A stretch of DNA of 63,635 bases, counting the filler, from Reclinomonas americana ATCC 50394 (taxonomy: Eukaryota), in the NCBI GenBank assembly GCA_048213135.1. It is 15 parts of 14 records of this genome, joined end to end, with 100 filler letters (N's around TTAATTAATTAA, not from the genome) between each part and the next. Parts side by side here need not be neighbours in the genome. Positions count along the whole stretch, not along the records: positions 17,394 to 25,988 come from PS016054.1; 14 more parts are not named here. One strand, written 5' to 3'. Below are positions 16,840-50,493 of the stretch, one piece after another. The stretch's first letter is position 1. Each line of letters begins with the position of its first letter. The notes under the pieces are model-generated. The model ran no database searches and was not told the DNA's origin. It saw nothing but the letters and a program-made list of their open reading frames with translations. A program made the translations under genes and the position numbers.

Positions 16840-17563
16840 GGTTGTGTGTCGTGCCACTGTCGATCGACACTGGCAAGAGGAGAAGGGGTGAGGTTGAATG
16901 GAGGGGAACAAGGGGGAAGGGAGGGGGAGGGAAAAGAGCAGGGGATAACGGAGAGCATCGACTGAGGAGCAGGAGGAGGAGAACAAGAAGAACGAAGAAG
17001 AAAAAGAAGAGAAACAAGAGGAAGAAGGGGAAGAGGAAGAGGAGAAGGAAAGGAAATAAAGAAGAACAAGAACGAGTGGAAGAAAAATGAGGAGAAGGTG
17101 GAGGGGAGGAAGAAGAAACAGGAAGAATGAATGAACGAATGAACGGAGGGGGAAGAGGATGAGGAGAAGAACAAGAACAAGAAGAAGAAGGAGAAGAATG
17201 AGGAGGAAGAGGAGGAGGATGACAAAGGAGAAGAAGAACAAGAAGTGGAAGAGGAAGAAGAAGAAGAAGAAGAAGAAGAAGAAGAAGAAGAAGNNNNNNN
17301 NNNNNNNNNNNNNNNNNNNNNNNNNNNNNNNNNNNNNTTAATTAATTAANNNNNNNNNNNNNNNNNNNNNNNNNNNNNNNNNNNNNNNNNNNNTCTTCTC
17401 CTCCTCCTCCTCCTTCCTCCTCCTCCTCCTCCTCCTCCTCCTTCTCCTCCTCCTCCTCCTCCTCCTCTCTCTCACTGCCCTCCTCTCTCTCTCTCACACA
17501 CGCTACTCCCTCTCCTCCCTCTCCCTCTCCCTCTCTCCCTCTCCTTTTCTCCCGCATTCGACA

Positions 17564-20500
17564 GTCACCCGCCTTGCCCCCCGGCACCCTCCGCACCATC
17601 TACGTTCTCGACCAGCAATCCTTGCCCTCCGCCTCTCTCGTCTCCCTCATGCAAGGACTGCAAGGCCTCCTCGCCCGCCAGTCGGCCACCGCCGCCGGTA
17701 TCTTTATCCTCCCCAATGCCGGCAGTCGAGCCGGCGGTCTCCTCTGGCTCCAGCACATGCAGGCGAATCAGTCGCTGTTGCGTGTCAGTGTCGACACGAG
17801 CATGATGCACGATGCGGTGTCGCTGTTGATGCATGTGGTCAAGGGCGTGGTGCGCGTCGACGGCTACTTTTTGTGCGATGAGGCGTCGCTGGCGGCGGCG
17901 GTGTCGTTGTGTGCGACGAGGGAGGCGGTGCCGGTGTTGGCCGATGATGAGATGGTGGCCAAGGGTGCGTAATAGGAGAAGGGGGAGAAAGGCGATAGTC
18001 AGAGAGAGGGGAAGGAGTGGAAGGGAGAAAAGGGAAGAGCGAGACAAGAAGAGGCTGGCAGTGCGTGGTGTTTGCCAATGATCAGGTGATGATCAAGACT
18101 GAGCAGCAGGAGAGGGGGGAAGGGATGGGAGGCAAAGGGCGAGTGACAGAAGAACAGACTGGCGTCCTGCTATTTGCACTCTCACTCTCTCTCTCGCTCT
18201 CCTTCATTTGTTTTCGTATCGCTTCCTTTATCAATCTAGTCTCACTCTTCCATTCTCTCTTCTTCCTTTTCCTTCACCAGTCGCTGTACTCCTTTCCCCT
18301 TTTCGCCACATTGTTCCTAGTCTCACTCTAGCTTTCTCTCTCCTTCCTTTCTGTCCTCCACCAGTCGCTGTACTCCATTCCCTTTTTCGCCTCATTGTTT
18401 CTTATCGCTTCCTCCACCGATCTAGTCTCATTCTTTTCTCTCTCCTTCTGTTCTGTCCTCCACCAGTCGCTGTACTCCATTCCCCTTCTCGCCTCATTGT
18501 TCCTTATCGCCTTCATCATCGATCTAGTCTCACTCTAGCTTTCTCTCTCCTTCCTTTCTGTCCTTCACCAGTCGCTGCACTCCATTCCCCTTCTCGCTTC
18601 ATTGTTTCTTATCGCTTCCTCCAGCGATCGTCTCATTCGGTGCATTCTCTCTCCTTCTTTTTCCTTCCTTCGTCAGTCATTGTATTCCTTTCCCCTTTTC
18701 GCCTTTGTCACTGCGGGATACGATCAACACGATGGGAGACAGAGCGAGCAAGTGAGAGAGAGAGAGAGAGAGTTGTCGGGGAGAGCAATGCTGCACGCAG
18801 TGTCAAGTGTGTTCCCTCATTCTTTGATCATTCCTCTGTATCTTGCTTCGTGCTCTTCACAGTTGTTCTTGCCGCTCTCATTCACTCCTCGTTGTTGCCT
18901 CTGCTTCCTTCGTTTCTTTTGCTTTTCCGTTTTCCGTGCCACTTCGTTCACCGTGCCTCGCCGCGCTTCTGCTCTCCGTCAGTCCCTCATTTCTTCGTGT
19001 GTTCATTTCTCCCTTCTCTCCTTCTCATGCACACATCCTCTTTCATCATTGACTGACCCTCTTTCCCCCCTTTCCCTTTCCCCCTCCCTGTCCCCGATCT
19101 CCCTGTCCCCATTCCCTTTGCTCTCCCTGTTCCCATTCCCTTTCCGATCTCCCTTTCCCCATCTTCTTTCCCCTTTCCCTTTCCCCCTCTTCTCACCCCT
19201 TTCCCTTTCTCCCTCTTCTCACCCCTTCCCTTTCCCCTTCCCTTTCCATCTCCCTCCCCTTCTCCCACTGCAGCCGCCGGCCTCACGCGCCTCGCCGACG
19301 TCCGCGGAATGACGGACGACCAGGTGTGGCAGCAAGTCAAGGGCAGCACCAGTCGCAGCATTCTCGTGTACCAAGATCCCACGAAACTCGCAGTTTCGAG
19401 TCTTTCCCTTCTCCCTCTTTCCCCCACTTCACCATTGGCTCATCATCCATCGCCGCAGGGTGGCTACCTGGCCGACTACGCCGTCTTCTCGCGCGCGTTT
19501 ACCATTTTCACCAAGGACCCAAAAGTCGACAAGTCGCGTGTGGTCAGCGAGGCTCTCGGTGCGCTGCAACCACAAGCCGCCACACTTGGGTGGGGCACGT
19601 CAGAGGACGGGCTGGTGCGTCGTCACTCCTCAGTGGTGTGGTTGTACCCATTGTTTCACCCACTCCCGATCCACCAGGTCGGTCCTGTGAGCTCGCACGC
19701 CGGCTTTGTCAACGCCGCCGACTGGGCGTGCAACTTGAGTGTGTTCACCTCCATCAAGGTTCCGGGCACCTTCATGCAGCCGGCGCACTCGCAGCCGCGC
19801 CCCGAACCGCGGGTCGGCAAGCACACGGTCAGCTTTCTCATGACCGACGGCGATAATGTGCAGTGGTTGCGTGTTCTATTCCCCCCTGACTCCCTCGTTG
19901 GGAAGATGTGATTTCCTCACTCTTCGCCTCCAGGATGCTGAACGATTTTGCCACGGCCACCAACTGGTACGGATCGCCGCAGCGAGGCCAGGTGCCCATT
20001 GGGTGGACATTGGCTCCGGCGCTCTCCGAGGTCGCGCCGCTGGTGTTGGATCACCTGTATCGCAATGCCACCAAGAACGTTGCGCTTGGGGGGAGAAGGT
20101 CACGGGTCCATTCGGCACACGCGTTTACAATTGTGATCTCGTGAGTGCAGGATCGCTTTGTGATGGCCCCCTCCGGCGCCGGCTACTTGTATCCCAACCT
20201 GTATCCGCCGTCAGAGTTGGCGCACTTTGCCGAGCTGAGCGCGCAGTACATGAATGTCACCGACATGGCCGGACCCATTGTTGCGTCATCTCTCCGCAAG
20301 TGTTCTTGTTTGTATCTGTAATGTCTCATGTCGCGCATGATGCAGAACGTCATTGACTCGGGCACCACGGTTTGCGACTCTCCTGTGTTAGTGCCGCGCG
20401 TGTAGGTGCGTCTCTCTCACTGCAATTGTAGCCTGACATGAATCGCATGGCCACCCTGCTGGCACCTCCCTCGGTCACCTCGATTTTCTACTACTCCTAC

Positions 20501-22005
20501 TCCGACTATGCCGGCCTCAAAGGTCGCGTGTTGTGGGTCGGCGACAAGCCGGTCATTGGAGCGCGATATCAGTTGTGTGCTCGAGGGGCAGAGATGAAGG
20601 CTGCTCCTGAAGATTGACTTGCCTTTTCGCGACAGAATGTGGACTGGTTTTGAGACTCCAGAGTCGCTGGCCAAGAAGCTGAATGCGGCTGCGCAAGATC
20701 CCACCTCGTCCGACGGGTACTCGCTGGTCGATGTGCATGTGTGGTGAGTGAAGCGGGAAAGGGNNNNNNNNNNNNNNNNNNNNNNNNNNNNNNNNNNNNN
20801 NNNNNNNNNNNNNNNNNNNNNNNNNNNNNNNNNNNNNNNNNNNNNNNNNNNNNNNNNNNNNNNNNNNNNNNNNNNNNNNNNNNNNNNNNNNNNNNNNNNN
20901 NNNNNNNNNNNNNNNNNNNNNNNNNNNNNNNNNNNNNNNNNNNNNNNNNNNNNNNNNNNNNNNNNNNNNNNNNNNNNNNNNNNNNNNNNNNNNNNNNNNN
21001 NNNNNNNNNNNNNNNNNNNNNNNNNNNNNNNNNNNNNNNNNNNNNNNNNNNNNNNNNNNNNNNNNNNNNNNNNNNNNNNNNNNNNNNNNNNNNNNNNNNN
21101 NNNNNNNNNNNNNNNNNNNNNNNNNNNNNNNNNNNNNNNNNNNNNNNNNNNNNNNNNNNNNNNNNNNNNNNNNNNNNNNNNNNNNNNNNNNNNNNNNNNN
21201 NNNNNNNNNNNNNNNNNNNNNNNNNNNNNNNNNNNNNNNNNNNNNNNNNNNNNNNNNNNNNNNNNNNNNNNNNNNNNNNNNNNNNNNNNNNNNNNNNNNN
21301 NNNNNNNNNNNNNNNNNNNNNNNNNNNNNNNNNNNNNNNNNNNNNNNNNNNNNNNNNNNNNNNNNNNNNNNNNNNNNNNNNNNNNNNNNNNNNNNNNNNN
21401 NNNNNNNNNNNNNNNNNNNNNNNNNNNNNNNNNNNNNNNNNNNNNNNNNNNNNNNNNNNNNNNNNNNNNNNNNNNNNNNNNNNNNNNNNNNNNNNNNNNN
21501 NNNNNNNNNNNNNNNNNNNNNNNNNNNNNNNNNNNNNNNNNNNNNNNNNNNNNNNNNNNNNNNNNNNNNNNNNNNNNNNNNNNNNNNNNNNNNNNNNNNN
21601 NNNNNNNNNNNNNNNNNNNNNNNNNNNNNNNNNNNNNNNNNNNNCATGCTCTTGTCTTCGCTTCTTTCTCTCTCCCTCACGGTGCTTCTCCCTTTCTTGC
21701 TTACCGACTCCCCTCCTTCGCCTCCTCCTCCCCTCACTTCTAATTTCTAGTCTCTCTCGTTCATTCCCCCTGTTGCCCTGGTTCTCTTGATACTTTTTCC
21801 GTTCTGTGCACCGCGCTCTACGCATCCTCAGCTTCCCTTTCTTTCTTCCCCTTTCCCCCTTCCCCCCTTCCCCCCTTCCCCCCCTCTCAGGACCATGACC
21901 GTGGCCGACGTCGTCCGCTGCGTCTCCCTGCTGGACCCCAACAAGGTGGCCGTGGTGCTGCCCGACGAATTCGCCCTCCTCATCGCCCAGAATGTGAAGC
22001 ATTGA
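17564..22005 (+). CDS. GxGYxYP-motif protein (putative glycoside hydrolase), multi-exon, 5' end in gap
   Basis: Motifs LQGLLAR, YLADYAVF, LGWG, SFLMTDGDNVQW, RGQVPIGWTLAP, APSGAGYLYP, GYSLVDVHVW and VVLPDEF. Stop at 22005. Confidence 0.85.
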
Positions 22006-22267
22006 ACGCGACACGAGTGTTTCTTCTCATGTATCAAAATGGCTCTCGCCACCGACTGGCTTTATGCATCATCATCATCATCAAAAATTTTGGCAACGTG
22101 GGGGAGAAAAAGGATCAATACTACACAGAGTGAGGAGCAAAGAGGTCGGTGCGGCGAGAGCGCATGGCAGAACCTAATGGAAGGGAAGGAGCAGGGAAGA
22201 ACACATCTACATCGACCGAGTCGATCGACAATAACAGAATGCAAAATGAGATTAGGGAGCGGCGTCG

Positions 22268-22273
22268 TTATTG

Positions 22274-22337
<64 letters not shown>

Positions 22338-25300
22338 TGCCGTCTCCGCTCCTGCAACGCTGCAATCTCCTGCTGCAGCGTGCCGAGTGTCTTGCGCAAC
22401 TCCTTGACGCTCTCCACCAGCGGCGCCACCAGCTGCGTGTACGCCACACCCTCTGCCGTGCGGTCGGGACGAGTCGTCACCGCCTCCGGCAGCACCTCAT
22501 GCACCTCCTCGGCAATGAAGCCGTGCTGCGTGCGCGAGTCGCCAATCATGTTGTACGTCACGCCACGGAGGTTGAGCACGCGCTGCAGCGACTCGGCACC
22601 ACCGAGCGTCACAATGTCGGTCTTGTAGCGCGCCGAACTGGTGCTGAACAGGGTGCCGCGAATGAAAATGTCGCCGCTGTGACCGTGGAAGATCACGTTG
22701 GAGCTCCACTTGGTGTCCTGCTCGGGGTGCGCCAGGTTCGGCGCAGAGAGGTGCGCCGAGAACACCGCCAAGTTGGCGCCGTCCACACCCAGCGACCAGC
22801 TCTTGGTGTTGTCGGCCGGTTGCGAGAAGACGAGCGATGATGGCACTCCGTCGACCGCGCGAATGGTGAGCGGCTTGGCGAAGCGATGGAACTGTGAAGT
22901 GGGGAGAAGGGGGAGGGAGAAGGGGTAAGGGAAAGGGGGAAGTGGAAGGGAAAGGAAAAGGGGAAAGGAGAAGGAGAACAAGCTAAGGAGCGCAATGCCA
23001 TCTCTTCTATTCTCTCTCTCTCTCTCTCTCTTGCTTTATCCCCTCTCCTTTACCGACAGTTAGCGCACTCGAGACACACAATATGCAACCACCTCTTCTG
23101 ATGCACGAAAATTCTCTCTTTCCATCACCGCCGGCATGCTTTGCCTCTCCATTGCTCGCTCTGTCTTCTTCTCACATTCTCTCGACAATCACTTCTCTTC
23201 TCAAGCTGTCTCGGTTTAAGAACTCTGCAACTGAATTGGTCTTTCATGCATCCTCTCCTCATCAACAGGAATGGCAAACTCTGTCTCCCCCACACTCTCT
23301 CGTTTCTGCACCCCGTACTTGATACCCTCGCTCTCTTCCTACGACATGCATGTGCCATCTCGTCCCTCTTGTCATTGTGTCTCATCCCGGTGCTTCCGTT
23401 TCTTTCGTCCACGGATCACAACACATGCACTCTTGTCCGCATCCCTCCCTCTCTGCCGCACACCAACACCTCGCACCCTTCTTCTCTCTCCTTGCCATCC
23501 CTCGCTCTCTTCATCCGACACACTAAAAACGCATGCACCATCTTCCTTTTGTCATTTTATCTCTCAGCTGTTCCGTTCCCCCAGTAGCTCTCCTCGTTTC
23601 CTCCCTTACTCGCTTTCCCTCTTCTCTCTCTCTTCCCTCTTCCTCCTTTTCTCTTCCCTCTACTCCCTTCCCCCTTCCCCCTTCCTCTCTCCCTTCCCCC
23701 TTCCCCCTTCCCCCTTCCTCCTTCTCCCTCTTCTCCCTCCAACTCACCCCTTGCGTGCATCCGTCCACCCCGAGGCTGCTCACGTGCAGCGAGCTGGAGG
23801 AGCGGAAACCATCCACACGCCACTGCAGCGGCGACACATCCGTGTCGGCGCCAATGGCCACCGACGATGCGTTGATGCGCACCGGCGCCGAAGTGTTGCC
23901 CGACTGCAGCGCCAGCTCACGCGACACCGACGACGACAACGCTTGCGCCGTGATGCGCGACGTGGTGGCCGATGTGATCACCGAGACGGCGCCGTTGAGG
24001 ACGGTGCGCGTGGCCGGCGAGAGGACCACGTTGCCGTGCGGCGACGAGAGGCTCAGGCCGTCGAGCGTCGAGCGCAGCTCGCCATAGTTGCCGAGCGTCG
24101 TCAGCGACGACACGGTCACGTCGCGTCCGGCGGCGGCCTTGAGCGTCAGAGCACCCGCACTGCCAGACTGCAGCGTGAGGTCGCGAGTGCTGCGAATGAC
24201 CTGGGCGCACGTCTGCAGAGTGCCAGAGGCCGGGCACAGGTTGAGGTTGCCGTTGACGGTGGAAATGAGGTTGTTGGCCGACGAAGGCGAAATGACCACC
24301 ACCGAGCAGTCGGCGCCGGTGAAGCCGGCGTCGCAAGTGCACGTTCCCGTGCTCGTGTCGCACGAGCCGGCAGCGGAGCACTGGTTCGGGCAGGCGGCTA
24401 CAGGGCGGAAGAAAAATGGCGTGAGTGAGTGAGTGAGCAAGAAAAGAGTGGAGGACGCAAGCACACGAAACTCGGCGTGGCCGGTCCGCTGCCAATGGCC
24501 TGTGAGCCGCCGAGTGTCCATGTCAACGAGTTGTTGCCACCAGCGCGGGTGCCGAAGCGGTGACGCGAGCCGAGCACCAACTGCGCCTGCTGGCTGGAGA
24601 GCGCCAGTCGCAGCACATTGTGCTGCGTGCCCTGCACAAACTCTGTCGGCTGGCCCTGGTTGACTTCGCCCGGCGCAATGTTGTTGCGAGCGCCGTATCC
24701 CTGCTGCGCGGTAAAGTAGCCAGTGTTGCGGTAGCCAAAGGTAATCAAGTAGCCCGACTGCACGGCCGTCACATTGTCGACCAACGCCTGCAGGCTGCCC
24801 GGCGCCACAGAGCAGTCCGCGCCGCCGTAGCCACTGGTGCAAGTGCACACACCAATTGTGGTGTCGCACAGACCGCGCTCAGAGCAGCCATTCGGGCACG
24901 TCTCTGTGTTTGGGAAAGGAGGGGAGGGAGAGAGTCGGTAAGTTTCGAGGGAAATGACACAGAAGCAATCAGCTACATCGACGCACTTTGCTCGCACGTC
25001 TGAATCGTCGCATCCGCAGTCACCGTCACGCCGTTCAGCGTCCACGTCACCGATGCGGCCGTCAGCGGCACCGAGAACACACCCGAGTGGCGGCCAGGAG
25101 CAAAGGCCGTTGGCTGACCACGATCTGTGGAATAGCGAATATAAAATGTCAGTGACGATGCGCTCCCCTTGCCGTCCACAAGTCACTCACCGGCCGTGTC
25201 GGCGAAAAAGTTGAGACTGCCTATCGGCAGCGGCACAGTGAAGCCGTTGCGATTGTCAAAGCCAAACACAATGACTCGGCTCTCGCCAGTCAGGCGCGTG

Positions 25301-28300
25301 CACTCGGCAATCGGCTGCACCGCCGTCGGCGCCACCGCGCACGACAGACCGCGGAAACCGGGGAAGCAAGTGCATTGACCGATCAGCGTGTTGCACAGGC
25401 CATGACCACTGCAGTCGCTCGGGCACGGCACTGGTGCAGGGGAAAGAGAACGGTGAGCAGACAAGAAAAAGCACGTGAGGAGGTGAAGGCACTCACCGAC
25501 GCAGCGCTTGTCGGCACGGGTGGCCGCCGCCTCGTTGCCGTCCAGGGCCCAGGTGACAGAGTCGACAAACGGAGCACGGAGCACCGAGCGCTGGCGCCCA
25601 ACGTCGAACTTACTGAGCAGCGTCACCGGGGACGACGCGCCAATGAGGAAGTTGGTCTCGTCGTTCGGCGCAATCGTCTTGACCACCGTCGTTGGGTTCG
25701 CGTAGCCAAACACAGCCGTGAGCGCACCGGCGGCGTTCTCCTGCACGCACTCCAGCACCGGCACCAGTGATGCAGGCGCCGACTCGCAAGCGTCGCCAAA
25801 GTAGCCGTCGGCGCAGTTGCACTGGCCGCGCAGGGTGTTGCACGAGCCGTGGCCGTTGCACTCGAGCTCCTCGTCGGACACGACGACGGTCGGGCACGAC
25901 TGGGTGGTCTCCGGGAAGCCGCAGACGGTGCACGATTCTGAGGGGGGAGTGGGAGGGGAAGGGATGAGAAAAGGGAAAAGGGAAAAGGNNNNNNNNNNNN
26001 NNNNNNNNNNNNNNNNNNNNNNNNNNNNNNNNTTAATTAATTAANNNNNNNNNNNNNNNNNNNNNNNNNNNNNNNNNNNNNNNNNNNNAAAATGAAAAAG
26101 AGAGAAAGAGATGCTGTCTTCCCTTCTTACCCTTCTTGCCCTCTCTCACCCTCCCTTCCCCCTCTGCCCCCTCTCACCCTCCCTTTCCCTTCTGCCCCTC
26201 TCGACTCACCGTCACACGAGGGGCTATCCGTCGCCGCGCGCACCACCTGACTGCCAATCTTCCACGACACACTCTGCGTAAAGGCCACCTGCACGGCACC
26301 AAAGACACGCGCACCGGCAACCGAGCGGCTGCTAAACACCGACGGCTGCGTCTGCGCCTCCAGCGGAGTGACTCCGTCCGAGCTCAGCAGCACATTGGCC
26401 GCGGTGCCGGCCGGCAGCACCACATTCACCGCGTTGGAGTTGATGTAGCCGAAAATGGCAAAGTAGCTGTCGACTTCGGCGTCGAATCGCACGCAATCCA
26501 GCTGTGGCACAACAGGCGCATCCGCCACACTGCAGTCCTCGCCACCAAAGCCCTGATCGCACTCGCACACGCCGGCGACGCACTCGCCGCGACCACTGCA
26601 GCTGTTGGGGCACGGCGCCTGGCACACTGGCGACTCGTCGCTGGCCACCGCCGACAAGGTGAACAGACGCCACGCCGTCATGCCGTCCGACGTGCTCGGA
26701 GCCACACGGGCCTCAAAGGCGTAGCTAAAGGTGCCCGGATAGAAGGTGATGGGCTGTGCGCGCGACTGCGGTGACGGCAGGAACTGGTTGTTGTCGCCGA
26801 CTGGGATGGTGCGCGACACCGGGTTGGGGTTGCGGTAGCCGAAGCGAGCCACGCGGCCGAGCTCGGCGTCGTCGCGCACGCACTGCAGCGTCGGCACCAC
26901 GTCGGCCAGCACCTTGCTGCAGTCGTCGCCAAAGTAGGGATCCTTGCACTCGCACTCGCCATACAGCGAGTTGCACGAGCCGTGCGCCGCATCGGTGCAC
27001 CCGTTGGGGCACGTGCGCACACAGCGCGCGGCATTCAGCGTTGCCGTGGCCGTCAGTGAGCCCACTGTCCACGTGAGATCGCTGACTGGGTTGTACGGCA
27101 CACGGAACACCTGGTGGTGCTCGCCCGCCAAGAACAGGTCGGGCTGGCCGCGATTCACCGTGCCCGGCGAGAAGAAATTGTCGCCTGCCGTCTGGTGAAT
27201 ACCACGAGTCTCCGTCGACGGGTTCGAGTAGCCAAACACGGCGGTGAGGGCGCCAGAGCGCGACTCCTCGAGGCACTCAAACACAGGCACAATCGGACCG
27301 ACGGCCACACTGCACGTGTCGCCGGAGAAACCCGTCGAGCAAGAGCACCGTCCAACCGTCTGATCGCACACACCGTGGTCGCCGCAGTCCTTTGCACACG
27401 GGTACAGGCAGCGCGGCGAGTCGGCCGAGGCCGTCAGTGCCGGCGAGTCGTCCAGCGTCCAGCTCACACGCGAGTCGGCGCTGAACGGCACCTGGAACAC
27501 GAAGCGGCGGCGGCCAGTGAAGAAGTTGACCGGCTGACCGGCATTGACCGAGTCCGCGCCGTCCACCTGGTTGCGGGTGCCGACGGCAATGGAGCGCGGA
27601 TACTGATTGCTGTTGACGTAGCCAAAGTGCGCCACCAGCTGGCCGGCATTCGCCTGGTCGACCGACACGCACTCGAGAATCGGCTGCACCGTCTGCAGAT
27701 CGATGCGCGAGCAATCGGCACCCGTCCAGCCCTTGTCGCACGCGCACTTCAGCGTCGAGTAGCTGCACGAGCCGTGGTCGCTGCAGAGCGAGCGCGGGCA
27801 CTGAGCGGGGCACGTGACGGTGAAATCGGACGACGAGGTGGCCTGGAAGTTGTCGATGCGCCACGACAGCGACGAGTCGGCATCGTGCTCCGTGAGGAAC
27901 ACGGTCGGGTGGCTGCCGGGCTTGAACGACGTCGGTTGACCGAGGTCTGTGTGGAACGGGGAATGAGAAAAGAGACGCGTGGGGAAAAAGAGAGAAGAAT
28001 GGGAATGCACACAAACCAGCATCGCCCGGAGAAAACTGGTTGTCGTTCTCGCCAATCTGCACCGTGCGCGTCACCACATTCTCGCTGTCGTAGCCCCACA
28101 CCGAGATCAGTGTGTTGGTCGTGGTGTTGACGAGGTTGCAGTTGAGACGCGGGCGCACAGGTGCCGTCGGCTGGCTGCAATCCAAGCCGCCAAAGCCCAC
28201 GTTGCACTGGCACGAGCCGGCCACGCACGATCCGCGCAGCGAGCAGTCATTGGCACACGTCGATGCCAGCAGCGACACGTCGTGGCTGCCGCCGGTGAAA

Positions 28301-29256
28301 GCCAGGCCAAACGAGTCGGATGCCACCGCGCTGCCGGCCGACGCGCCGCCAAAGAGCGACACGAAAATGCCATTGGCGGCGGAGCGATCGGGCAGCGAGC
28401 GGCTGCTCGGCACCAGCTGCGAGCAGTCGGCGCCCGTGTAGTTGGTGAAGCACTGGCACACGCCGGAGACGCAGAATCCCTGTCCCGAGCAGCTGTTCGG
28501 GCAGGTGGTGCTCTTGCAAAAGTTGGTCGACGGGGGTGGGGAGAGGGTGCCAATGAAGCGCAGGCCGTCGGAGAAGATGGCGAGCGAGGAGCCGGTGGAG
28601 TTGAGCTGCGCGGCGAAAGGGAAGGGGGTTAAGGGGAAGGGGATGAAAGGAAAAGGGATGGAAGGAGAAGGGACGGAAAGGAGGAAGGGATGGAAGGAGA
28701 AGGGATGGAAGGAGAAGGGATGAGGTGAGGAAGGGATGAAAAACGAGGAAGGGATGAAGTGAGGAAGGGACAAGGAAGGGATAAGATGAGGGATGATGGG
28801 GAAGGGGGAAGGATGGAGAGAGAAGAGGAACGAGAGCTGGAAGCAATGCAAGGGCTACAGAATTACGAGATGATGAGAGACAACAAACGAGTGAGATAGA
28901 GTCAGAGCGACATGACAGGGCGACGAGAGACAGACTAAGCAAACGAAAACAGAAAAATAGAATACAGAGACGCAGTTGGGAGCAACAGGCACATTGCGGA
29001 TGAGTAAAAAACAATAGGCAGGAGGGGGAAGCAAATGAGCGCAACAGTGCGAGCAACGTGAGCAACACAGAGCATGCTGACGGACCAGAGAAAGAGTGGG
29101 AAACGAGAGAGAGAGAGAGGAGAAATCACAATCGGGAGCACAAGGCACAGGGCAGAATAGTGAAAACAACAGGAAGGAGGGCGAAGCAAATGAGTGAAGC
29201 AGTGTGACCAAGGTGAGGAGCAACGAGCACGCTGACAGACGAGAAAAAGAGTGGGA

Positions 29257-29297
<41 letters not shown>

Positions 29298-32200
29298 ACA
29301 TTCCCTTTCCCAAACACAAACCTGCTTGAGTGCCCACTTGTCGACCGTCAACTCGTCAAACGTGGTGTCACACGGAGTGTTGATCAGCGTGCGCGTGCGG
29401 TTCAGCAACGTCTCCGTGTCGACCAGGCGCCGGGTGATGCGAGTGGTCTCGGTGGTGTACTGCGACGACAGTGTCGTCCAGGTCGAGTTGAGCATGTTGA
29501 CCAGAGTCGTGGTGGTGCTGATCGAGGTCTCCAGCGTCGTGACACTCGTGGTGAGGTCGATGAAAGTCGAGTTCAGCGAGGTGACGTTGGTGCGCAGAGC
29601 GGCGATCTTGGGCGCACAGCACGACGACGCATCGTCGGCCAGCGTGGCAAAACCGCCACGCACCGCCGAGGTCGTGACGCGTGGCTTGGCGTTGTTGGCG
29701 TACAAGGCCAGCGAGCGGAATTCGGCGGCCGAGATGGTGGTGAAGCCGGAGCCGCTCGAGCGCGGATCGCTGTCGTTGTTGATGTTGCCCAGGGCCAGCG
29801 AGCCCTCACCGACCATCACACCCGACGTCGGACGGAAACGCCAGTCGAGGTTGGCGGGTTCGTCGGCCGAGGTCGAGTTGGAGCGGGTGAGGCGGCCGAG
29901 AATGATCTCGCCGTCGTGGTTCTCCACGTACAGTCCGCGGTCGGTGCCGTTGAAGCGCGCGCCAATGGCGGTGAAGATGAGAGTGGGTTGGTTGAGTTGC
30001 AGCTGCAATAGGGAAAGGGAAGTGGGGTGAGCGAAGGGAGAAGGATGGGGGAAGGAAAGGGGAAGGAAAGGGGAAGGAAAGGGGAAGGAGAGGGGAAGGA
30101 AAGGGGAAGGAAAGGGGAAGAGTGGGAAAGAGTGTGGGGAAAGAGTGTGGGGAAAGAGTGTGGGGGAAGAGTGTGGGGGAAGAGTGTGGGGGAAGAGTGT
30201 GGGTGAAAAGTGTGGGTGAAGAGTGGTGAAGGGCGCATATCAACAAGATGCACAATAGCAACGAAGCACAAAGCACAGTGACGATGATCAGTGAAGAAAG
30301 CAAAGATTGGTGACACACACAGCACAAGAGAATTGCAACGCAAAGGCCTTCTCTTACATCAACCCGCTCCCTCTTCCGCCCATCTCCGCAACGCAACTCC
30401 AGTGAATGGCGACAGAGCGAAAATCGACGACGAGTTGCCGTTGAGCTCCGTCGACAAGGCAGTGAGCTGCAGCTGGTCGCTCACTGGGCGCAAGAAGAAT
30501 TCGTCAGTGAAAAAGTGAAAGAGACAAGAAACAAGAATGCTGACGACGCACAATTCTTCTCAAACGTGTAGTTGATGTTGGGATCGGAGAAACCGCCACC
30601 AGCAGCTCTGGTATCGCGCGTCGTGTACGAAGAATGCGTGTCACCATCATCCACGGATAGATACTTGCCGCGTTTCGGAGGACCTGCAGTGACAAGTGGT
30701 TGATAAATGGCTGAAGCTCTCGCGCAGAACGAAAACCAGTACCTTGATTGATGGGCACTTCGGGCTGCCAACTCATTCGCGATGTACTGATCATGTTTGC
30801 CGATTGTATCATCGGAGCGTCGATACCGTTGGAGCCCATAATCTGCAAGGCATAAGTGAGTGTGGCTGAAAAGAGGGAAGGGGAATACAAACATAAACGC
30901 ACCATCAAATTGTCGTTGGTGGTCCAGTTGCCACGGAGCGGCCAGTACGCCCACAGGAACTGCAGGCCGATAAAGATGACCACAATGGCCACCACAATCC
31001 ACATGGCAATCCAGATGCCACGGCGGCAGCACTGCGCGGAGGACGAGATGAGCACGAAGTAGGAGGGAGGGAGAGAGAGAAGGAGAGAAAGAGGGAGAAG
31101 GGGTTGTGAGAGAGAAGGAGAGAGAGAGACACACAGATACACACGCACACATACACAGAGAAAGAGAGAGAGAGAAAGAGAAAGAGAGAGAGGGAGAGAA
31201 AGAGAGAGAAAGACAGTACTGAATTAAAAAGACTCGCCTTCTGGCGGAATGGCTCGGCATCGACGTGAGTCTTGTGGTGGTCCATGAAGTGGATCTCACG
31301 ACGCGTGTCGTGCTGCGAGAACGAGCGCTGGCCAAAGAGGACGCGAAGACGGTGCTTCTCGGCATCGCGAATGCCTGTGATGTGGAGGTGTGAGGATAGT
31401 GGGGAGGAGAGGAGAGAGGGAAGGACTGCTCACCAGGAATGTCGCTCTGCGCCGAGTGGTAGCTGCCTTCGTCCTCGCGACGAGGAGTCGAGTCGAAGCG
31501 AACCTCTCCGCGGGTGGCGAAGCTGATGACCATGTGGGGTGAGCTTCCAGGAATCGGAATGACAGAATCAGAGGGAAGACTCACCGTGCACTGTCGGGGA
31601 ACTCGAGCGTGGTCTGCGGCGGCTCAGTGCGTGCACTCTCCGGGAACTCAATGGTGGTCGTCGGCAACTGTTGCAGCTGGCGACGGTCGGTCTTGGGGGT
31701 GGCGGGGAACTCAATGTCGGTGGCCGACTTTTCGAAGTCCTCGCCGGCCTTGCGTGCCTCGGCGAGGTAGTCGAGGGGGCCGCGGGGGGTTCTGAGAAGG
31801 GGGCAGAAGGGGAAGGGTGAGGGGAAGGGTGAGGGGATGGGTGAGGGGAAAAGGGGGAGGGTGAGGGGGAAGGGTGACGGGATGGGGGAGAGTGAATGGT
31901 GGGGAGTGAAAGAGGGAGTGAAAGAGGGAGTGAAAGGGGGAGTGAAAGGGGGAGTGAAAGGGGGAGTGAATGGTGGGGAGTGAAAGAGGGAGTGAAGGGG
32001 GGAGTGGAAGGGGAGTGGAAGGGGGAGTGGAAGGGGGAGTGGAAGGGGGAGTGGAAGGGGGAGTGGAAGGGGGAGTGGAAGGGGNNNNNNNNNNNNNNNN
32101 NNNNNNNNNNNNNNNNNNNNNNNNNNNNTTAATTAATTAANNNNNNNNNNNNNNNNNNNNNNNNNNNNNNNNNNNNNNNNNNNNAAGTCACCCGACACGC

Positions 32201-35200
32201 CCGACATGCCCGACAGCGTGGGCTCGGGGGTGATGCCGGCGTCGGAGATCTGTGCAATGGGAGGGATGGAGTGAGGCGCATACTCGAAAAGAGGGACGAC
32301 GACGACGACGACGACGCAACGGTGGATTCACGCTCCATCTCGGCTCCAAAGCGCGCCAGTACCAGCTGTGCGTCGGGAGCAATGCCGGAAAAGTCGCTCA
32401 GCTCGCGGCGAGTTCCGCGAGTGCCGCCCGGTTGCTGGGGGAGGGGGGAGGGTGAGTAAGGGAAAGGAGAGGGAAGGGAGAGGGAAGGGTGAGGGAGGGG
32501 GAGAGGGAAGGGAGAGGGAGGGGGAGAGGGAAGGGAGACGGAGACGGAGAGGGAAGGAAGAGGGAAAGGGAGGGGAGAAGGGAGAGGGAAGGGAGAGGGA
32601 AGGGAGAGGGAGGGGAGAGGAGAGGAGAGGGAGAGGGAAGATAGGGTGAATTACGGGAAGGATGGTGTGAACGGTGACACGACAGAGATGCGCAGAACGA
32701 CACGAACAAGGGCTCAGTAATGAGTGGAACCAAGACAGCAGGTACACGTGACGAGGGGAGACTTAGGAGTGCACGGATGCGAAAAATCGATGAAGGCACA
32801 GAAGTGAGAACTCAATACAAGTGTCAACAAAAAATGCGAGAAGGACGCAGGAGTGAGTGGCTCCGAAAGATTTGACACACGATCAGCTGAAGTGAAGAAA
32901 GAGAGGAGGAACGTGCAGAACGATAAGCGAGCAAAGGCCGCAAGTGTGAGAAGAGCCAAGAGAATTGAACGAGTGTGCAGAGAATGCAGAGTGAAACAGA
33001 AATAAAGAAGTGGGCTGAGAAAAGAAGAATGCAAGTAGCAGAATGACACACAAATCAATGTACGAGCACACAAATGAAAGTGCAGTAAGTGCAGAATCAC
33101 ACAAATGAGGGAATGGGCTGAGTGCGTGACTCCAGCGGAAAGAATACAGAATATGTGGAGTGAGAGAAGAGCAAAAAAATACAGCGGAAAAGGTGTGCAA
33201 AAACTGAATAGAAATCAGTAATGTGTTCGAAATTCTTCGCTGCACAGACAAGCAATGAAAGCAACGCTGCAGAGTAATGCTCACAGCTTCCCAGTCAGCT
33301 GTCCCCCTGTCCTCTCTCTCCCCACTCCTCCCCAAGAAACGTCGCACTCACCTCACTGAGGAACCGCGCCGAAGCCGACGTCGAGTCTCCCGTGGCCGTC
33401 AGCAGCGACGAGGAGGACGCGCCTGCCGCGTCCGCTGCCGCCAAAGCCTGTCCTGCGGCCGCAGAGGATGCGCTCGAGGGAGAAGTCGGCGGAGAGCTTC
33501 CGACTGTGAATGGTGGAGCGCGCAGAGACATGTGCGATTCAGTTGATCGGCGTCAACACGGCGTTGTTGCTTGTGTGTATGTGTGCCGCACAATAACAAA
33601 GTCTAACCACACACTCACTCACTGAATCACTCAAAGAGAAACCAATCACAAAACCAAATGCACTCTCTCTCTCTCTTTCTCTGTGTGTCTGTGTGTCTTT
33701 ATGTCTGTCTCTCAGAGTCTATGCAGCACGGTGGTTTCCTTCCGACCCCTCACACGCACTGCTCTCTGAAACAGATGGTGCGTCTGAATGTGATTACGGA
33801 CAAAAAACCAACGGAAATACTCCAAATATGGAAATCAGGAGGACGCGGGACGCTGTGAAGTAAAAAAGGGCGGAAGGGAGGGAGGAGAGGGAAGGGGAAG
33901 GGGAAGGGGAAGGGGAAAGAAAGACTGACTAGATTTATAAAGAGAAAATTGAGGCAACGACGATGCAAGGAGAGATTGAGAAAAATAGAGAAATTGACAC
34001 ACAGAGAAGTTGATTGGAGGGAGGAGGTGAGCGGAGGGTAGAAAAGTAACGGGGTGAGAGCGCAGAGAGCGCGAGAAACTGAAAAGAGAAATGCAAAGAG
34101 GTGACGGGAAGCAACGTGAACAAGGTGAAACTGCAAGAAGCGCAGAAAAGGCAAAGAGGAATGGAAACAAAGAACAGAGAGTCAGAGCGCGAGAGAACAA
34201 GAGAAGGCAGAAGGAGAACAAAATCGAAAAGTGGAAGCAGAAGAAACATGAGGAGGAGCAGAAAGCACTGGAAACGAGATGAGAGGAGAACAACGAGAGA
34301 ACAAAAGCAATGAATTAAAATAAGAAAGAAGAGGCGGAGGGGAAAGCGAGGCAACAGCACGATCTGAAGAGCGCGAGAGCGGCAAAAATGGCCCAGTAGA
34401 TGGAGACGCAGACTCTCGTGAAACTGCCTCACGTTCCTCTCCTTTCCCTGCTTCCTCGTCTCATTTCTCTGCTTCTCTTCTCCTTCCCCTGCTTCCTCTT
34501 CTCGTTTCTCTCACTCCTTCTTCTCCTTTCTGTGCTCCCTCCTCTCCTTTCTCTGCTCCGTCTCTCTCCTTTCTCTATTCTCGCGTCCCCCCTCATTGCC
34601 CCTCTTCTCCTTTCTCTGCTCCTTCTTCTCCTTTCTCTGCTTCCTCCTCTCCTCTCTTTGTCCCTCTTCTCCTTTCCCTGCTTCCTCTTCTCCTTTCTCT
34701 GCTCCGTGTTCTCCTTCCTCTGCTCCGTCTTCTCCTTTCTCTGCTCCGTCTTCTCCTTTCTCCCTTCCCCCTCCCCGCCACTCACCCACTGGCCTCGGTT
34801 GCACCACCTGCTGCGGCGGCGCATTGCCAAGCAGCGCTGGACGCGGTCGCGGGGGCTTTTGCGGCTGCGTCGAGTGCGTAATGACGTGCGCCGTGGGCAC
34901 GGCGCTGTCCGACGACTCGACCAGTGTCGGCGGCGACGAGGAGGACGGGTTGGGTGGCGTGAACTGCGGTTGCGCCGCGGCACCCGTGGCGGAGCCTTCG
35001 TCGGAGGGCGGGGTGGTGCGAATGGGGAAGCCGATCGAGCCCACCTCGCTCGTGTCCTCCGGGGGCTCTGTGTTGAAAAGCAAGAGGTGTTTAGCAGAAA
35101 AGAGGAGGAGGATGGTTCGTGAGTGGAGAGAGTGGGCGCAACGAAGTGCGGCGGCACCGTGATGCACGGCGGGTGCCAGCGACAGATCGCTGCGCTCCGC

Positions 35201-37254
35201 AAAGGAGCCGAGTGAACCGCCGCGGCTGCTGCTCGAGCGACTGCCAGGCAGCGAGTGCGGGGCAAACGGGCGCAGGGTGGAGCCGACGCCGGCAGTGGGA
35301 GCCACCAGCACGTCGGGCGATGGCGCATTCACCACGGGCGTGCCGAGACTGCGTGACGAGTTGCGTGCGCTGCTGCTCTGCAGCGAACCGACGACTGCGA
35401 CGATGGGGGGAGTGAGGGTGAAGTTGTGGAGAAGGGAAGGGGGGAAGAGACGCACTACTTTGCTCGCGGAACGTGCCGCCTTCGGATCCGGGAGGAGAGG
35501 GATCCTGGTCGCGGGCCATCCATGGCGCCTCGCGCTCCGAGGACATCTACAAGGGGGGAGGGTGGGTAAAGGAGAAGAGGGAGGTGCAACACGACAATGA
35601 ATCAGGTCACTCAGAAGGCACAGGAGGCTGCAAATCCACAGTGGATTTGAAGAACAATGCACAGAGTGCAAAGAGAAAGCCCAGAGTGAAAAGATTAACC
35701 CAGCACGCCGAGGAATCACAGTGGCGTTGAAACAGAAAAGACCCAGCACGCCGAGGATTCACGGTGGCGGGCAGAGACGATAACAGATTGACAGGGTGGA
35801 GAGACACATTGACACAAGAGTGGAAAGAGAACTCCGTGGCAAGGCACAGAGACTCACGGCGGTGGTGAGCACAGTCAACGACACACAGTGCAAGAGAAAA
35901 CATAGTGACACGAGAAATCCACCACACGCATGTAAGCGCAGAGCTGAATGACACGTCGATAACAGAACGCAGAGACAGCGTGGAACGAGAAACCCAGCAC
36001 GCCGAGCCATGCAAACGCATGGAGTGCAATGTCACGACACGCGAGATCGCGAGTGGACATTCCTTCTCACTCCCCGTCCCTTTTCCCACACACGCACACA
36101 AACCTGAATGCTGCTGCTGACTTGACGCATCCACTGCTGCACAAGCTCCGCGTCACCGCTGTGGTCGGCAAAGACGGTCTCCTCGGGCGGTCGCGCCGTA
36201 ATGACAGCAAAGCCAGTGCTCTTGGGTCCGGCAAACACCGGGCGCACCGAGGCGTTGCGCAGCAACAGGCGCTTCTTCAGCGTGCCTTGCAGGTCGGAGT
36301 AGATCAGCAGGTGGTGGCCCTGCAGCATCACAAAGACGCGCTCGCCGTCGCCGCCTGTTGTTCGTCGACAGGGTGGTGAGGTGTGTGGGAAAGGGGAAGA
36401 ATGAAGGGTCAGATGCACGCAACGGCCCATGTTGAGGTAGCCAGCAAAGGCCGGAGGTGGAAGATCGCCGAGCGGGTGGGTTGACTGCGTAGAATAAGTG
36501 CATGAGCGGGGTGGGGGAAGGGAAAGCACAGCAAAAACGGTGGAGAGGAAGCGCACGGTGCAAGCAAGTACGACACTCAAAAGCAGAGAGCGGAAAATGA
36601 AGCGAATATCAAGGGGAAATGTTGCTGCTGAGCGCAAGAGAGCGAGAGAGAGAGAGAGATAGAGAGAGAGAGAGGAGGGAGGAAGAGGGAGAGACAGACA
36701 GAGAGAGCGCGAGATCGCCGCAGTGACTGCAGCAGAGCGCAGAGAAGCACGAGGGATTATCAATGAAGCAGAGAGAAAGAGGCGCTGAGTGCAAGAGCGT
36801 GAGGTATTCAGCGTCAGAGAATGTGACACAGAGAGTGAAATAGATGGCCACTGAGTGAAGCGAAAGGTTGCTGTGATAGCGTACGACACAAAGCCGAACA
36901 GATTGCAAGAGAAAGAGCTGGTGAGGGGAGAGAGAGAGAGCGAGAGAGAGAGAGACTCGACAAAGAGAATGCCAAACAGAGAGAAAGAGAGACGGAGCCA
37001 GAGGCAGAGACGCCACTGAGGGAAGCGATAAACAATAGGAAAATGACCGCCGAAGTGACAGTGAACACGAAACAAAGCCGAACAGATTGCAGGAGAAGAG
37101 AAGCTGCTGAACAAAAGAGGGAGAGAGATTGTGTGATGAAGACGGCGGCAGAGAGAGACGGAGACAGCGGCAGAGACGACCACTGAAGAATATGCCGACT
37201 TGACGGTGAACACGACAATGCGGAACAGAATGCAAGAGAAGAAAAGCCGCTGAG

Positions 37255-37332
<78 letters not shown>

Positions 37333-37999
37333 CGAGACGAGACGACGACGACGACGTACGTACGTACGTAACGAACGTACGTACGTACGAACGAACGAAC
37401 GAACGAACGAACGAGACGACGACGACGAGTAGAGNNNNNNNNNNNNNNNNNNNNNNNNNNNNNNNNNNNNNNNNNNNNNNNNNNNNNNNNNNNNNNNNNN
37501 NNNNNNNNNNNNNNNNNNNNNNNNNNNNNNNNNNNNNNNNNNNNNNNNNNNNNNNNNNNNNNNNNNNNNNNNNNNNNNNNNNNNNNNNNNNNNNNNNNNN
37601 NNNNNNNNNNNNNNNNNNNNNNNNNNNNNNNNNNNNNNNNNNNNNNNNNNNNNNNNNNNNNNNNNNNNNNNNNNNNNNNNNNNNNNNNNNNNNNNNNNNN
37701 NNNNNNNNNNNNNNNNNNNNNNNNNNNNNNNNNNNNNNNNNNNNNNNNNNNNNNNNNNNNNNNNNNNNNNNNNNNNNNNNNNNNNNNNNNNNNNNNNNNN
37801 NNNNNNNNNNNNNNNNNNNNNNNNNNNNNNNNNNNNNNNNNNNNNNNNNNNNNNNNNNNNNNNNNNNNNNNNNNNNNNNNNNNNNNNNNNNNNNNNNNNN
37901 NNNNNNNNNNNNNNNNNNNNNNNTAGAGTACGGTAGGTGTTCGTTCGTCGTCGTCGTCCGTCGTACGTACCGTACCGTACCGTCCGTCGTACGTACGAC

Positions 38000-38042
<43 letters not shown>

Positions 38043-39209
38043 CTGTGGTGCAGAAGGCGAGAGAGAGGGAGACAGGCGGCACGGTGGCACAACGACCACT
38101 AGGTGAAAGATTCACGATTGTCAAAAAAACAGGAGAAATGCTGCCGAGTGCATGAGTGAGAGCTACTCAGTAACACAATCAAGCACCTCTCGACAGACAC
38201 AGCCACCCAACAACAAGAACCACAGTGACAACGCCCTTTCCCCTTCTTCCTCACCTCCCTCTGCAAGGCCTTCTCACGCGCCACGCTCTCCGGCGACGAC
38301 TCGCGCTGCCTCTGCCGCGTCTCAATCGTCTCCTTCCAATCATTCGACGTCGCCAACGCACTCTCATGACTCGCCGGCCGATCCGGACACACGACCGCCC
38401 ACACGGCTTGCATTGCCGGTGCCTCGCCGCCGTCCTGCACGCTCGAGGCCGACGACGCGCCCGGCGAATCCGTTGTCCCGGCCGCGACGGGGATGCGAAG
38501 TTGCAGGGCGTTGGGACGCTCGGCGGAGCGCGTCACCGGAATGCCGAGCACCGACACGGAGCCCAGAGGCACGCGTGTCTAAAAACGCACATCATGCCCA
38601 AAACAAGAGTGATCAGTGGGGAAGAAGATGGGACGCGCACATGACACACACACACACACAGGCGATCAACACAGACACAGACAGACATGCATGTGTGTCA
38701 AGAACAAAAAGATGCGCGCGCGAAGAGTGAGAGAGTGTGAGATCACGCGCGTGGGCATGTCCTGCTCATGCACACTCTCTCCTCTCTTGCTCTCCCCCCC
38801 TTTTCTCTCTCTCTCTCTGCACAGTGGGTGCTCGCGTACCGATTCGTCCTCGTAGCAGAAGATGGTGCTTCCACGGAACTCGAACCAACTATTTTTTTGT
38901 GAGTGAGAGAGAGTGAGTATCGGAAGATTAGCACACACACACATACTCAAGAGTGAGCAAACGCAACTTTGACTGCCATTGACCGCGGTCTGTGAGTGTG
39001 TGACACAGAGAGAGTGAGTGTGTGAGAGAGTGCGTGTCAATGAGTGTGCAGACGTAACGTCGTCGACTGAGCCAGCCGCGTTTGATAGGCGGCTCATCGC
39101 GATCCTGTGTGCGCGAGAGTGTGCGTGTGAGCAACTCTGTGTGTGTATGTGTGGCACTCACTCTCACTGACACACACGAAACTCGATCGGCCGAGGGAGA
39201 GGTGCCCAT
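22268..39209 (-). CDS. Giant predicted type II membrane protein: PH-PH, disordered region, TM, coiled coil, EGF/FGY-GQP array, fibre-like segment, Peptidase_S74 chaperone, polyQ
   Basis: About 25 exons join in frame from ATG 39209 to TAA 22268 with phase-compatible splice sites. Continuity across the gaps at 37435-37923, 32085-32184 and 25989-26088 is inferred. The TM-to-stop half is well supported; its attachment to the PH half is less certain. Confidence 0.75.
22271..22333 (-). repeat. Coding CAG repeat, 21 Gln immediately before the stop
   Basis: (TGC)n on the plus strand, in frame with the S74 exon. Confidence 0.9.
22334..22640 (-). other. Peptidase_S74 / intramolecular chaperone auto-processing domain with trailing coiled coil
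   Basis: TSSARYKTDI..L..V..LRGVTYN....HGFIAEEVHEVLPEAV........GVAYTQLVAPLVESVKEL matches the S(D/S)xRxKxxI ... GFIAQEVxxVxPExV ... VxYxxLxxxLxxAxKEL signature. Confidence 0.92.
24300..28510 (-). repeat. Protein-level array: 10 tenascin-type EGF-like repeats interleaved with 8 ~90-aa FGY/GQP beta domains
   Basis: Repeated CPxxCSxxGxC..C.C..G(F/Y/W).G.DCS units, each followed by VxPxLxCV...A.FGY.N.N....I..G..N.F.P.....GQP..F..G.H..VF.V......(V/L)(T/S)W.L. Confidence 0.92.
36105..39105 (-). other. Two PH-like domains at the N-terminus of the giant gene
   Basis: PH1: PIKRGWLSRRHRGQWQSNWFEFRGSTIFCYEDESTRVPLGSVSV...DWKETI. PH2: FAGYLNM..GERVFVMLQGHHLLIY...LLRNASV...VQQWMRQV. Both have the invariant C-terminal helix Trp. 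Confidence 0.8.
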
Positions 39210-50300: not shown

Positions 50301-50493
50301 CTCCTCTCCCTCCTCCTCCTCTCTCTTCTCTCTCTCTCTCTCTCTCTCCCTCCCTCCTCCTCTCCCCCCCCCTCCCTCTCTCTCTCTTGCTTCCTCGCTT
50401 CCTCTCCTCTCCCGACATGTCTGCGTGGGCCTCTTCTGATTGAGAAAGCTTCATGCCTGACGAGACTCGTGTTTTTGTTTCGTCCACACGCAG

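Follow-up and report, generated by a model that had tools for sequence, protein, structure and literature searches.

Gene model and membrane layout

The window analysed here is a stretch of 63,635 nt from Reclinomonas americana ATCC 50394 (GCA_048213135.1), of which positions 17,394 to 25,988 come from PS016054.1. Its minus strand carries a gene predicted to encode a long membrane protein with PH domains at one end, a Peptidase_S74 domain at the other, and EGF and Ig-like modules between them (Table 1). The start codon is a predicted one and the exon joins were taken from splice sites and reading frame; 29 exons lie in the window and one lies inside the gap at 32085-32184, where it is visible only in the other haplotype. 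With splice sites set by coordinates, the frame is open for 2,136 aa from 31790 to the stop.

Table 1 Predicted features of the S74-bearing gene and its product in the window
Feature	Position	Strand	Evidence or remarks
Whole gene	22268..39209	-	30 exons, ~2,790 aa, type II membrane protein; open spliced frame, GT/GC-AG introns
First PH domain, over four exons	38255..39104	-	Read by eye
Second PH domain	36104..36484	-	PF00169 E 0.0037, 18.2 bits, below the 25.1 cut-off; 83-aa exon
Low-complexity Ser/Pro-rich cytosolic region	31238..35546	-	Possible alternative in-frame start, ATG at 33531 (putative)
Single transmembrane helix (signal anchor)	30945..31019	-	Residues 803-827; preceded by Cys-Cys-Arg-Arg
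Membrane-proximal beta-rich region, ~250 aa	29610..30944	-	
Thr-rich heptad coiled-coil stalk, ~76 aa, Cys on both sides	29382..29609	-	
10 teneurin/tenascin-type EGF and 8 interleaved ~95-aa Ig-like repeats	24306..28518	-	
Beta-rich tip, ~270 aa, two exons	22640..24305	-	Presumed triple beta-helix
Peptidase_S74 / ICA core	22475..22639	-	Pfam profile, MYRF alignment, homologue columns, Foldseek
Predicted cleavage site	Between Thr (22642-22640) and Ser (22639-22637)	-	Cut N-terminal to Ser, after the available text of PMC3828593
Chaperone C-terminal helix (trimerising coiled coil in MYRF)	22337..22441	-	Residues 150-184, pLDDT 94-98; heptad pattern
Poly-Gln, 21 residues (11 in the other haplotype)	22271..22333	-	

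A second haplotype, contig G000:C693, spans the locus and bridges both assembly gaps; the gap at 25989-26088 holds intron only, and that at 32085-32184 holds a 247-base exon whose phases join both sides. Splice sites are kept in C693 for every exon that is comparable. Over 26 of the 29 window exons (of the others, two are lost to a gap in the allele and a third carries an in-frame 3-base insertion), the haplotypes differ by 118 synonymous versus 25 replacement codon changes, so the gene is under purifying selection. Short introns differ at 55 of 659 sites, and the aligned S74 part has no replacements, its Ser, Arg and Lys being unchanged. The GC3 value is 83 % and the 29 introns are host-style.

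The first PH domain was assigned by eye from the PH pattern; a Pfam scan of one of its exons gave no PH match, and its exons are kept in the allele with synonymous changes only. Between the PH exons and the rest lies a long intron, and an alternative start is possible there. A gene that starts at ATG 33531, with the PH domains on another transcript, is held to be decidedly unlikely; its product would be cleaved and trimerised as proposed below, as a passive coat protein or adhesin with a disordered tail and not as a signalling receptor. This in-frame ATG is located 28 bases before the exon-9 acceptor, after a 1.3-kb intron, and both haplotypes retain it together with the sequence preceding it, but the splice phases connect the PH exons to the rest with no stop, and the sole alternative acceptor that would end a PH gene, 33853, is lost in the other haplotype. 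The shorter form would resemble the paralogues C343 and C47/C152, in which a candidate helix follows low-complexity sequence and no PH domain was noticed by eye in the stretches translated.

In the preferred model, which includes the PH exons, the transmembrane helix is the sole Kyte-Doolittle peak above 1.6 (2.81), and no N-terminal hydrophobic segment or signal peptide was found (maximum -0.83), leaving an internal signal anchor instead. Four Lys or Arg residues occur in the 15 residues before the helix and one in the 15 after it, with 5 Cys in the 802 aa before versus 83 in the 1,963 aa after, and 2 N-glycosylation sequons before versus 18 after. From sequence, the predicted layout is that of a type II protein, with the PH domains and low-complexity tail inside, ~1,960 residues outside and the S74 end luminal. 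The preliminary description had placed the chaperone in the secretory pathway, and the single helix and the bias in Cys and N-sequons agree with that placement.

The membrane-proximal beta-rich region gave no significant Pfam or PHROG match over the exon 29322-30002, which covers about half of it. In the stalk, two heptad positions are 58 % and 73 % L/I/V/M/F and the remaining five 8-27 %. The EGF modules match PF23106/PF07974 above cut-off, the ten being counted by pattern, and reach 62.9 bits with EGF_TEN, below its cut-off of 65. The Ig-like repeat (8 copies) is modelled by AlphaFold as a confident beta-sandwich (pLDDT 92) of middling likeness to Ig-like domains (best VIA Z 6.4, rmsd 3.2 over 79 residues), with no Foldseek match at E<=0.001 and no family in Pfam or PHROG. 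Outside this genome the repeat is present in proteins of bacteria and of metagenomes and in a type I protein of Gefionella, where it likewise alternates with EGF; in its own genome it was found at this locus only (10 matches on 3 contigs, representing the two haplotypes).

The tip is 43 % G/S/T/A in composition. Its last ~20 residues align with phage tail-fibre PHROGs, and its last 83 residues form short strands with pLDDT 52-75 in the AlphaFold monomer model; the tip exon 23748-24305 has no family match, and Atlas look-ups gave leads that were all under 0.9. Autocorrelation gave no clear repeat period for the tip, and neither beta region matched the shafts of the paralogues better than shuffles did, except for one 32-residue match (iE 0.0011). 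As the tip has neither detectable shaft homology nor a clear period, the presumption of a triple beta-helix comes from the chaperone next to it.

The Peptidase_S74 domain and the predicted cut

The minus-strand last exon (22891-22268) translates free of stops as ...GTLFST-SSARYK-TDI...GFIAEEV...coiled coil...21 Gln, stop, the order of motifs after the dyad that the preliminary description had read, and contains 0 Cys and 0 N-sequons. The dyad codons are AGT at 22639-22637 for Ser and AAG at 22624-22622 for Lys. The PF13884 (Peptidase_S74) match begins at the dyad Ser and covers profile positions 1-58 of 58 (E 3.6e-13, 50 bits versus a cut-off of 22). Ser and Lys are both kept in all 149 homologues that cover the site, within the best 150 of 32,495 homologues at E<=0.001, a set thus chosen for similarity to the query. 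The residue after the Ser is Asp in 93 of these 149, Ser in 42, Ala in 12 and Thr in 2, and it is Ser here; these counts indicate that the first of the two serines holds the nucleophile position and that SS is a common variant. An alignment of 49 sequences has S84, K89, G123, A126, P134 and Y150 invariant.

A pairwise alignment with MYRF 7dc3, weak taken alone (E 0.028), runs without gaps across the site and pairs the Ser with S587A and the Lys with K592, the two residues at which mutation abolishes the cleavage of MYRF (available text of PMC8326128). Counted on this alignment, with the numbering of PMC8326128, the MYRF positions R590, Y615 and I637, described in the available text of that paper as affecting cleavage, are identical here. 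S-x4-K occurs seven times in the 2,790-aa model, and S[DS]xRxKxx[IV] once, at the dyad only. The best Foldseek matches of the AlphaFold monomer were 7dc3 (E 1.3e-6) and the K1F chaperone 3gw6 (6.3e-4), with 4uw8 and 3gud also among the top entries, and the ICA fold has pLDDT 93-98 from residue 91 onward.

The domain belongs to Peptidase_S74 by a profile score above cut-off, a dyad at the catalytic columns and an ICA fold with a C-terminal helix. The earlier claim that the dyad is kept is confirmed at the level of alignment, the Pfam match, the 149 homologues and the register with MYRF S587/K592 all setting the pair on the predicted catalytic positions and not off them. Since the dyad is present in 149 of 149 homologues, an intact pair is the family default and is little news by itself; it was also found in 28 of the 30 S74 loci retrieved from the same genome (of 44 matches), the remaining two starting past the motif.

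From the Ser to the stop there are 123 aa, in line with the C-terminal fragment of ~120 aa that had been forecast. The Gln run behaves as a variable CAG repeat, with 21 residues here and 11 in the second haplotype, which would make the released piece 123 or 113 aa long. Thr stands directly before the dyad Ser, as T910 does in K1F (available text of PMC3828593). That the chaperone is active and self-cleaving is a reasonable inference from this analysis, and the secreted bacterial S74 fibre Bd3182 is reported to self-cleave at its Ser (PMC10769870, available text). The preliminary description had release follow trimer folding. In the account given in the available part of PMC8326128, MYRF cleavage requires trimerisation of the ICA domain only and no folding of the upstream stalk, which weakens that claim. 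The same source describes the mature MYRF trimer as not SDS-resistant, which makes SDS resistance too strict as a trimer test.

The S74 domain might instead trimerise the ectodomain, be left uncut or partly cut in the secretory pathway and remain as a cap, which is considered unlikely. The Ser that replaces Asp after the nucleophile and the Glu at the MYRF Q639 position, near the active site, would suit such a cap, but they recur in 42 of 149 and 52 of 150 homologues (best 150 of 32,495), respectively. MYRF Y617, also near the active site, is Met here, and loss of aromatic residues in MYRF blocks or shifts the cut (available text of PMC8326128). The nucleophile lies in a Ser-Thr-Ser-Ser run, and O-glycosylation of this Ser/Thr cluster could block it; against an uncut cap, Ser, Arg and Lys are the same in both haplotypes, and cleavage of MrfA at the ER is described as rapid and constitutive (PMC3828593, available text). 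Cleavage with loss of the chaperone is the preferred reading.

Were cleavage to occur, the released chaperone with its poly-Gln could itself be the functional product. A shed-signal role has been proposed for teneurin C-terminal peptides, and here too the type II topology is combined with teneurin-type EGF and the cut would free a soluble trimer. Such a role is thought very unlikely in the present case, as the fragment consists of the chaperone and a Gln run only, the latter varying from 11 to 21 between haplotypes, and in phage proteins the chaperone is discarded (available text of PMC8326128).

Genomic setting and related systems

The flanking genes encode a cytochrome b561, a mitochondrial BCKDK-type kinase, a GxGYxYP hydrolase and a GPS-bearing surface protein. 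When 30 of the 68 flanking segments were scanned, six matched ordinary cellular Pfam families and one more an NHL repeat, and no viral family (capsid, packaging or polymerase context) was found in them. An endogenous viral fibre gene, from a polinton-like or giant virus, or a contaminant, is thus highly improbable and largely refuted. Modular fibres with an S74 cap are common among the polinton-like viruses that infect protists (PMC12220804, available text), the best PHROG matches are tail fibres (down to E 2.5e-20), and the assembly includes four S74 loci on megabase contigs that were read as bacterial-looking; the present gene, however, has host-style introns and codon composition, EGF and PH domains, a membrane anchor, two haplotypes and the marks of purifying selection.

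The 30 S74 loci retrieved reduce to about 15 eukaryote-type loci, mostly haplotype pairs. Several of the paralogous domains form the end of giant genes, split by introns, whose Gly/Ser/Thr/Ala repeats have a period of 12, 17 or 33 residues, and two paralogue loci have a candidate transmembrane helix upstream. A tree of 98 columns was built without the C343 domain (split by introns), about half of the metagenomic rows and MYRF. In it, 12 of 14 eukaryote-type S74 domains of this genome cluster with weak support (SH-aLRT 81), and the domains of this gene and of C15849 fall among metagenomic sequences outside that cluster. The tree sets this gene apart from a weak paralogue cluster, but a single origin is not rejected (AU p 0.357), and for that reason no donor or separate acquisition is claimed. 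A GTDB scan gave 3 loci at 32-38 % identity and an IMG/VR scan 80 kept loci of 84 at 28-40 %, values that point to no close relative.

MYRF and Dictyostelium MrfA resemble this protein in being eukaryotic and membrane-tethered, with Ser-x4-Lys and a C-terminal coiled coil, and 7dc3 is the best structural match. In MYRF, however, the ICA domain precedes the membrane helix in the cytosol, frees an N-terminal transcription factor and stays on the membrane, whereas here it is predicted to be the luminal C-terminus, with the helix ~1,840 residues upstream, EGF and Ig-like modules before the ICA domain and a fibre that would remain anchored. The Ndt80-type DNA-binding domain of MYRF was not seen in this model; an Ndt80 search of the genome gave no match, but its positive control gave none either.

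The phage chaperones (K1F 3gw6, T5 L-fibre 4uw8 and 3gud) share the C-terminal position after a beta-rich stretch and the Thr-Ser site, but this protein, unlike phage fibres, is cellular, comes from a spliced gene, is anchored in the membrane and is rich in disulfides. Only a short hairpin connects the GxIAxE motif with the helix, so that the long stalk-sensing tentacle of K1F, as set out in the available text of PMC8326128, appears from sequence to be absent. The Bdellovibrio MAT fibres, an S74 subgroup that includes Bd3182, are alike in forming an expanded S74-capped surface family of their own, with mosaic shafts and export before cleavage, and differ in being bacterial, with a conserved 130-aa N-terminal beta domain and a signal peptide that is absent here (PMC10769870, available text). 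EGF, PH domains and a type II anchor are not described for MAT fibres in the available text of that paper.

The TLP-12 glycofibril is a further protist structure of this kind, an extracellular, glycosylated, trimeric triple-beta fibril linked to alveolate candidate genes with C-terminal ICA domains; it differs in being a pure 12-residue repeat of up to ~20,000 aa (available text of bioRxiv 10.1101/2025.09.30.679562). No G-S-x-x-S dodecapeptide shaft was detected here, lag 12 lying outside the top five autocorrelation lags in both beta regions, and the 12-residue period is absent from this protein and present in paralogues of the same genome. With the alveolate TLP-12 candidates and the polinton-like virus fibres, insofar as the available parts of these sources describe them, an ICA domain located in the secretory pathway is not new in kind.

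The type II topology and teneurin-type EGF recall the teneurins. Teneurins are type II membrane proteins with a prokaryote-derived outer part and are dimers. Their FN-plug/NHL/YD shell after the EGF array was not found here, where EGF alternates with Ig-like repeats, and no NHL, YD or toxin-like domain was found in the ectodomain exons scanned (all but two small exons). The same alternation is present in Gefionella okellyi P0002 (EukProt) and in P0183, the former with 34 % identity over 80 % of a 578-aa exon; both differ in being type I proteins with a signal peptide and a C-terminal helix, and PF13884 is not listed for them. P0002 and P0183 both carry VWD, and P0002 carries REJ as well.

Three word-based searches, which are weak evidence of absence, were made for proteins of the same architecture. 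The 578-aa exon gave 27 matches among proteins of 1,013-2,890 aa and P0002 residues 1040-1500 gave 4 among proteins of 1,539-4,899 aa, with PF13884 in none of either, and the last exon gave none at E<=1e-8 among 1,830 candidates of 325-2,000 aa. The EGF pattern was found in 0 of the best 150 S74 homologues (of 32,495), and no PH-TM-EGF-S74 protein was found in the literature searched, whose coverage mostly excludes subscription journals; the ICA candidates of the TLP-12 preprint (Fig. S5, supplement) may include similar proteins. Within searches of this limited reach, the PH-TM-EGF/Ig-S74 layout was found nowhere else. By the defining features of these groups the protein is not a MYRF, a MAT fibre, a TLP-12-type fibril, a teneurin or a viral fibre, and on this analysis it would work most like the tip of a MAT or phage fibre.

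Proposed maturation of the protein and its significance

The gene is best read as a host nuclear gene whose product would be a homotrimeric, membrane-anchored and self-maturing surface fibre. Its trimer would form in the secretory pathway and a chaperone of 123 aa would be shed; this reading is regarded as probable, with some reserve. The reading draws on the invariant dyad in register, the identical R590, Y615 and I637 positions, the Thr before the Ser, the intact C-terminal helix, the last exon free of Cys and N-sequons, the topology, the purifying selection, the cellular neighbours and the ~15 eukaryote-type S74 loci, together with the reported self-cleavage of Bd3182 and the ICA-linked alveolate fibril. 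Against it stand the tip without shaft homology, the changed Y617 and Q639 positions, the Asp to Ser change after the nucleophile, the Ser/Thr cluster, the long-intron link to the PH exons and the two exons within a gap of the allele. Overall, the earlier interpretation is partly supported.

By comparison with MYRF, MrfA, phage chaperones and Bd3182, three C-terminal S74 domains would meet in the ER lumen via their coiled coil. The S74 trimer would set the register, from which the beta-rich tip could wind into a triple beta-helix; the membrane-proximal heptad stalk would clamp the other end, with the EGF and Ig-like modules as three beaded strands between. Lys would then activate Ser, the Thr-Ser bond would be cut, and the chaperone trimer would be lost with its poly-Gln tail, exposing the tip. 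Because the anchor is N-terminal, the mature fibre would stay on the cell, the reverse of MYRF. More speculatively, the tip and Ig-like repeats may bind glycans on prey or substrate in the manner of Bdellovibrio MAT fibres (an analogy only), and the PH domains may couple binding to phosphoinositides and the cortex.

A fuller version is offered tentatively and is rather unlikely as a whole. In it, the protein would be a self-maturing trimeric prey or surface receptor in which the fibre tip of a phage or bacterium, together with its autocleaving chaperone, has been grafted onto an EGF/Ig stalk and PH domains; cleavage in the ER lumen would serve as quality control, and binding by the freed tip would be linked with phosphoinositide signalling and with engulfment. 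Such a receptor would be the eukaryotic parallel to the MAT fibres and one of ~15 S74 genes, its chaperone possibly acquired separately from most paralogues.

The catalytic pair is ordinary and its placement on an EGF-rich, receptor-like membrane protein is unusual, so that interest rests on the protein that is capped and not on the dyad. In the literature found, insofar as its available text allows, tests of ICA cleavage in eukaryotes are confined to MYRF and MrfA, where the domain faces the cytosol. An ICA domain placed in the lumen, on a membrane-anchored, disulfide-rich protein, raises the question of whether the chaperone can function alongside the glycosylating enzymes of the ER, and bears on how protists build the ICA-bearing surface fibrils that are now visible by cryo-EM in pond water. 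If the preferred reading is true, a phage-type assembly module would have been recruited into a receptor-like eukaryotic architecture.

S74-ending repeat genes in the genome

Among the S74 loci (L-numbers) fetched from contigs (C-numbers) of the same genome, giant, intron-split genes encoding Gly/Ser/Thr/Ala beta-repeats and ending in an S74 domain were found at L037 (C159), L038 (C102), L041 (C13), L048 (C18), L042 (C301) and L052/L053 (C47/C152), with repeat periods of 12, 17 or 33 residues. In a 1,725-aa frame of L048, the unit G[ST]xx[ST]x7G is present 37 times; this pattern has been described in TLP-12, a protist extracellular glycofibril with a 12-residue repeat (bioRxiv 10.1101/2025.09.30.679562), but the main periods of the L048 frame are 17 and 11. 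L052/L053 have candidate type II membrane helices followed by beta-rich exons and the S74 domain, and a similar candidate helix precedes such exons at L050 (C343). The C343 S74 domain is split by introns and shares with the S74 gene of the window a Ser in place of the usual Asp directly after the nucleophile-position Ser.

No long beta-repeat exon was detected upstream of the S74 exons at L040 (C121), L045 (C761), L044 (C440) and L049 (C1596). S74 copies occur in twos, with a spacing of ~2.5 kb, on C121, C12 and C761, and the genes preceding the C121 copies, as read by eye, would encode glutamine synthetase and an ammonium transporter. Long intron-free S74 genes (L002, L006, L021, L027) are located on the megabase contigs C1 and C2, which look bacterial, and the assembly (G000) therefore probably includes prey or symbiont genomes.

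Introns and Ig-like repeat of the window gene

One GC-AG intron is kept in both haplotypes, and in long introns purines predominate towards the 5' end and pyrimidines towards the 3' end. The Ig-like repeat, for which Pfam has no family yet, is shared with bacterial proteins and with two or more proteins of eukaryote type; carriers of the repeat are P0002 (a Gefionella okellyi EGF/Ig-repeat protein, EukProt), P0183 (unnamed, with a like repeat alternation), P0184, P0185, P0020-P0022 and P0024.

Coordinates of features (window positions unless a locus is named)
Feature	Position	Strand
GC-AG intron donor (n=1)	31237	-
Several non-consensus GT donors (GTTGCG, GTTTCG)	24471-39182	-
95-aa Ig-like repeat, invariant FGYxN motif	24473-28017	-
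GxGYxYP putative glycoside hydrolase, intron-split	19450-20557	+
Large surface protein, NHL repeats and GPS autoproteolysis motif	50493-56682	+
Candidate type II membrane helix	L050:3628-4200	

Neighbouring genes

The GxGYxYP gene, of a mainly bacterial family, and the S74 gene end tail-to-tail. After the S74 gene product, the NHL/GPS protein is a second candidate in the window for a self-cleaving surface protein.
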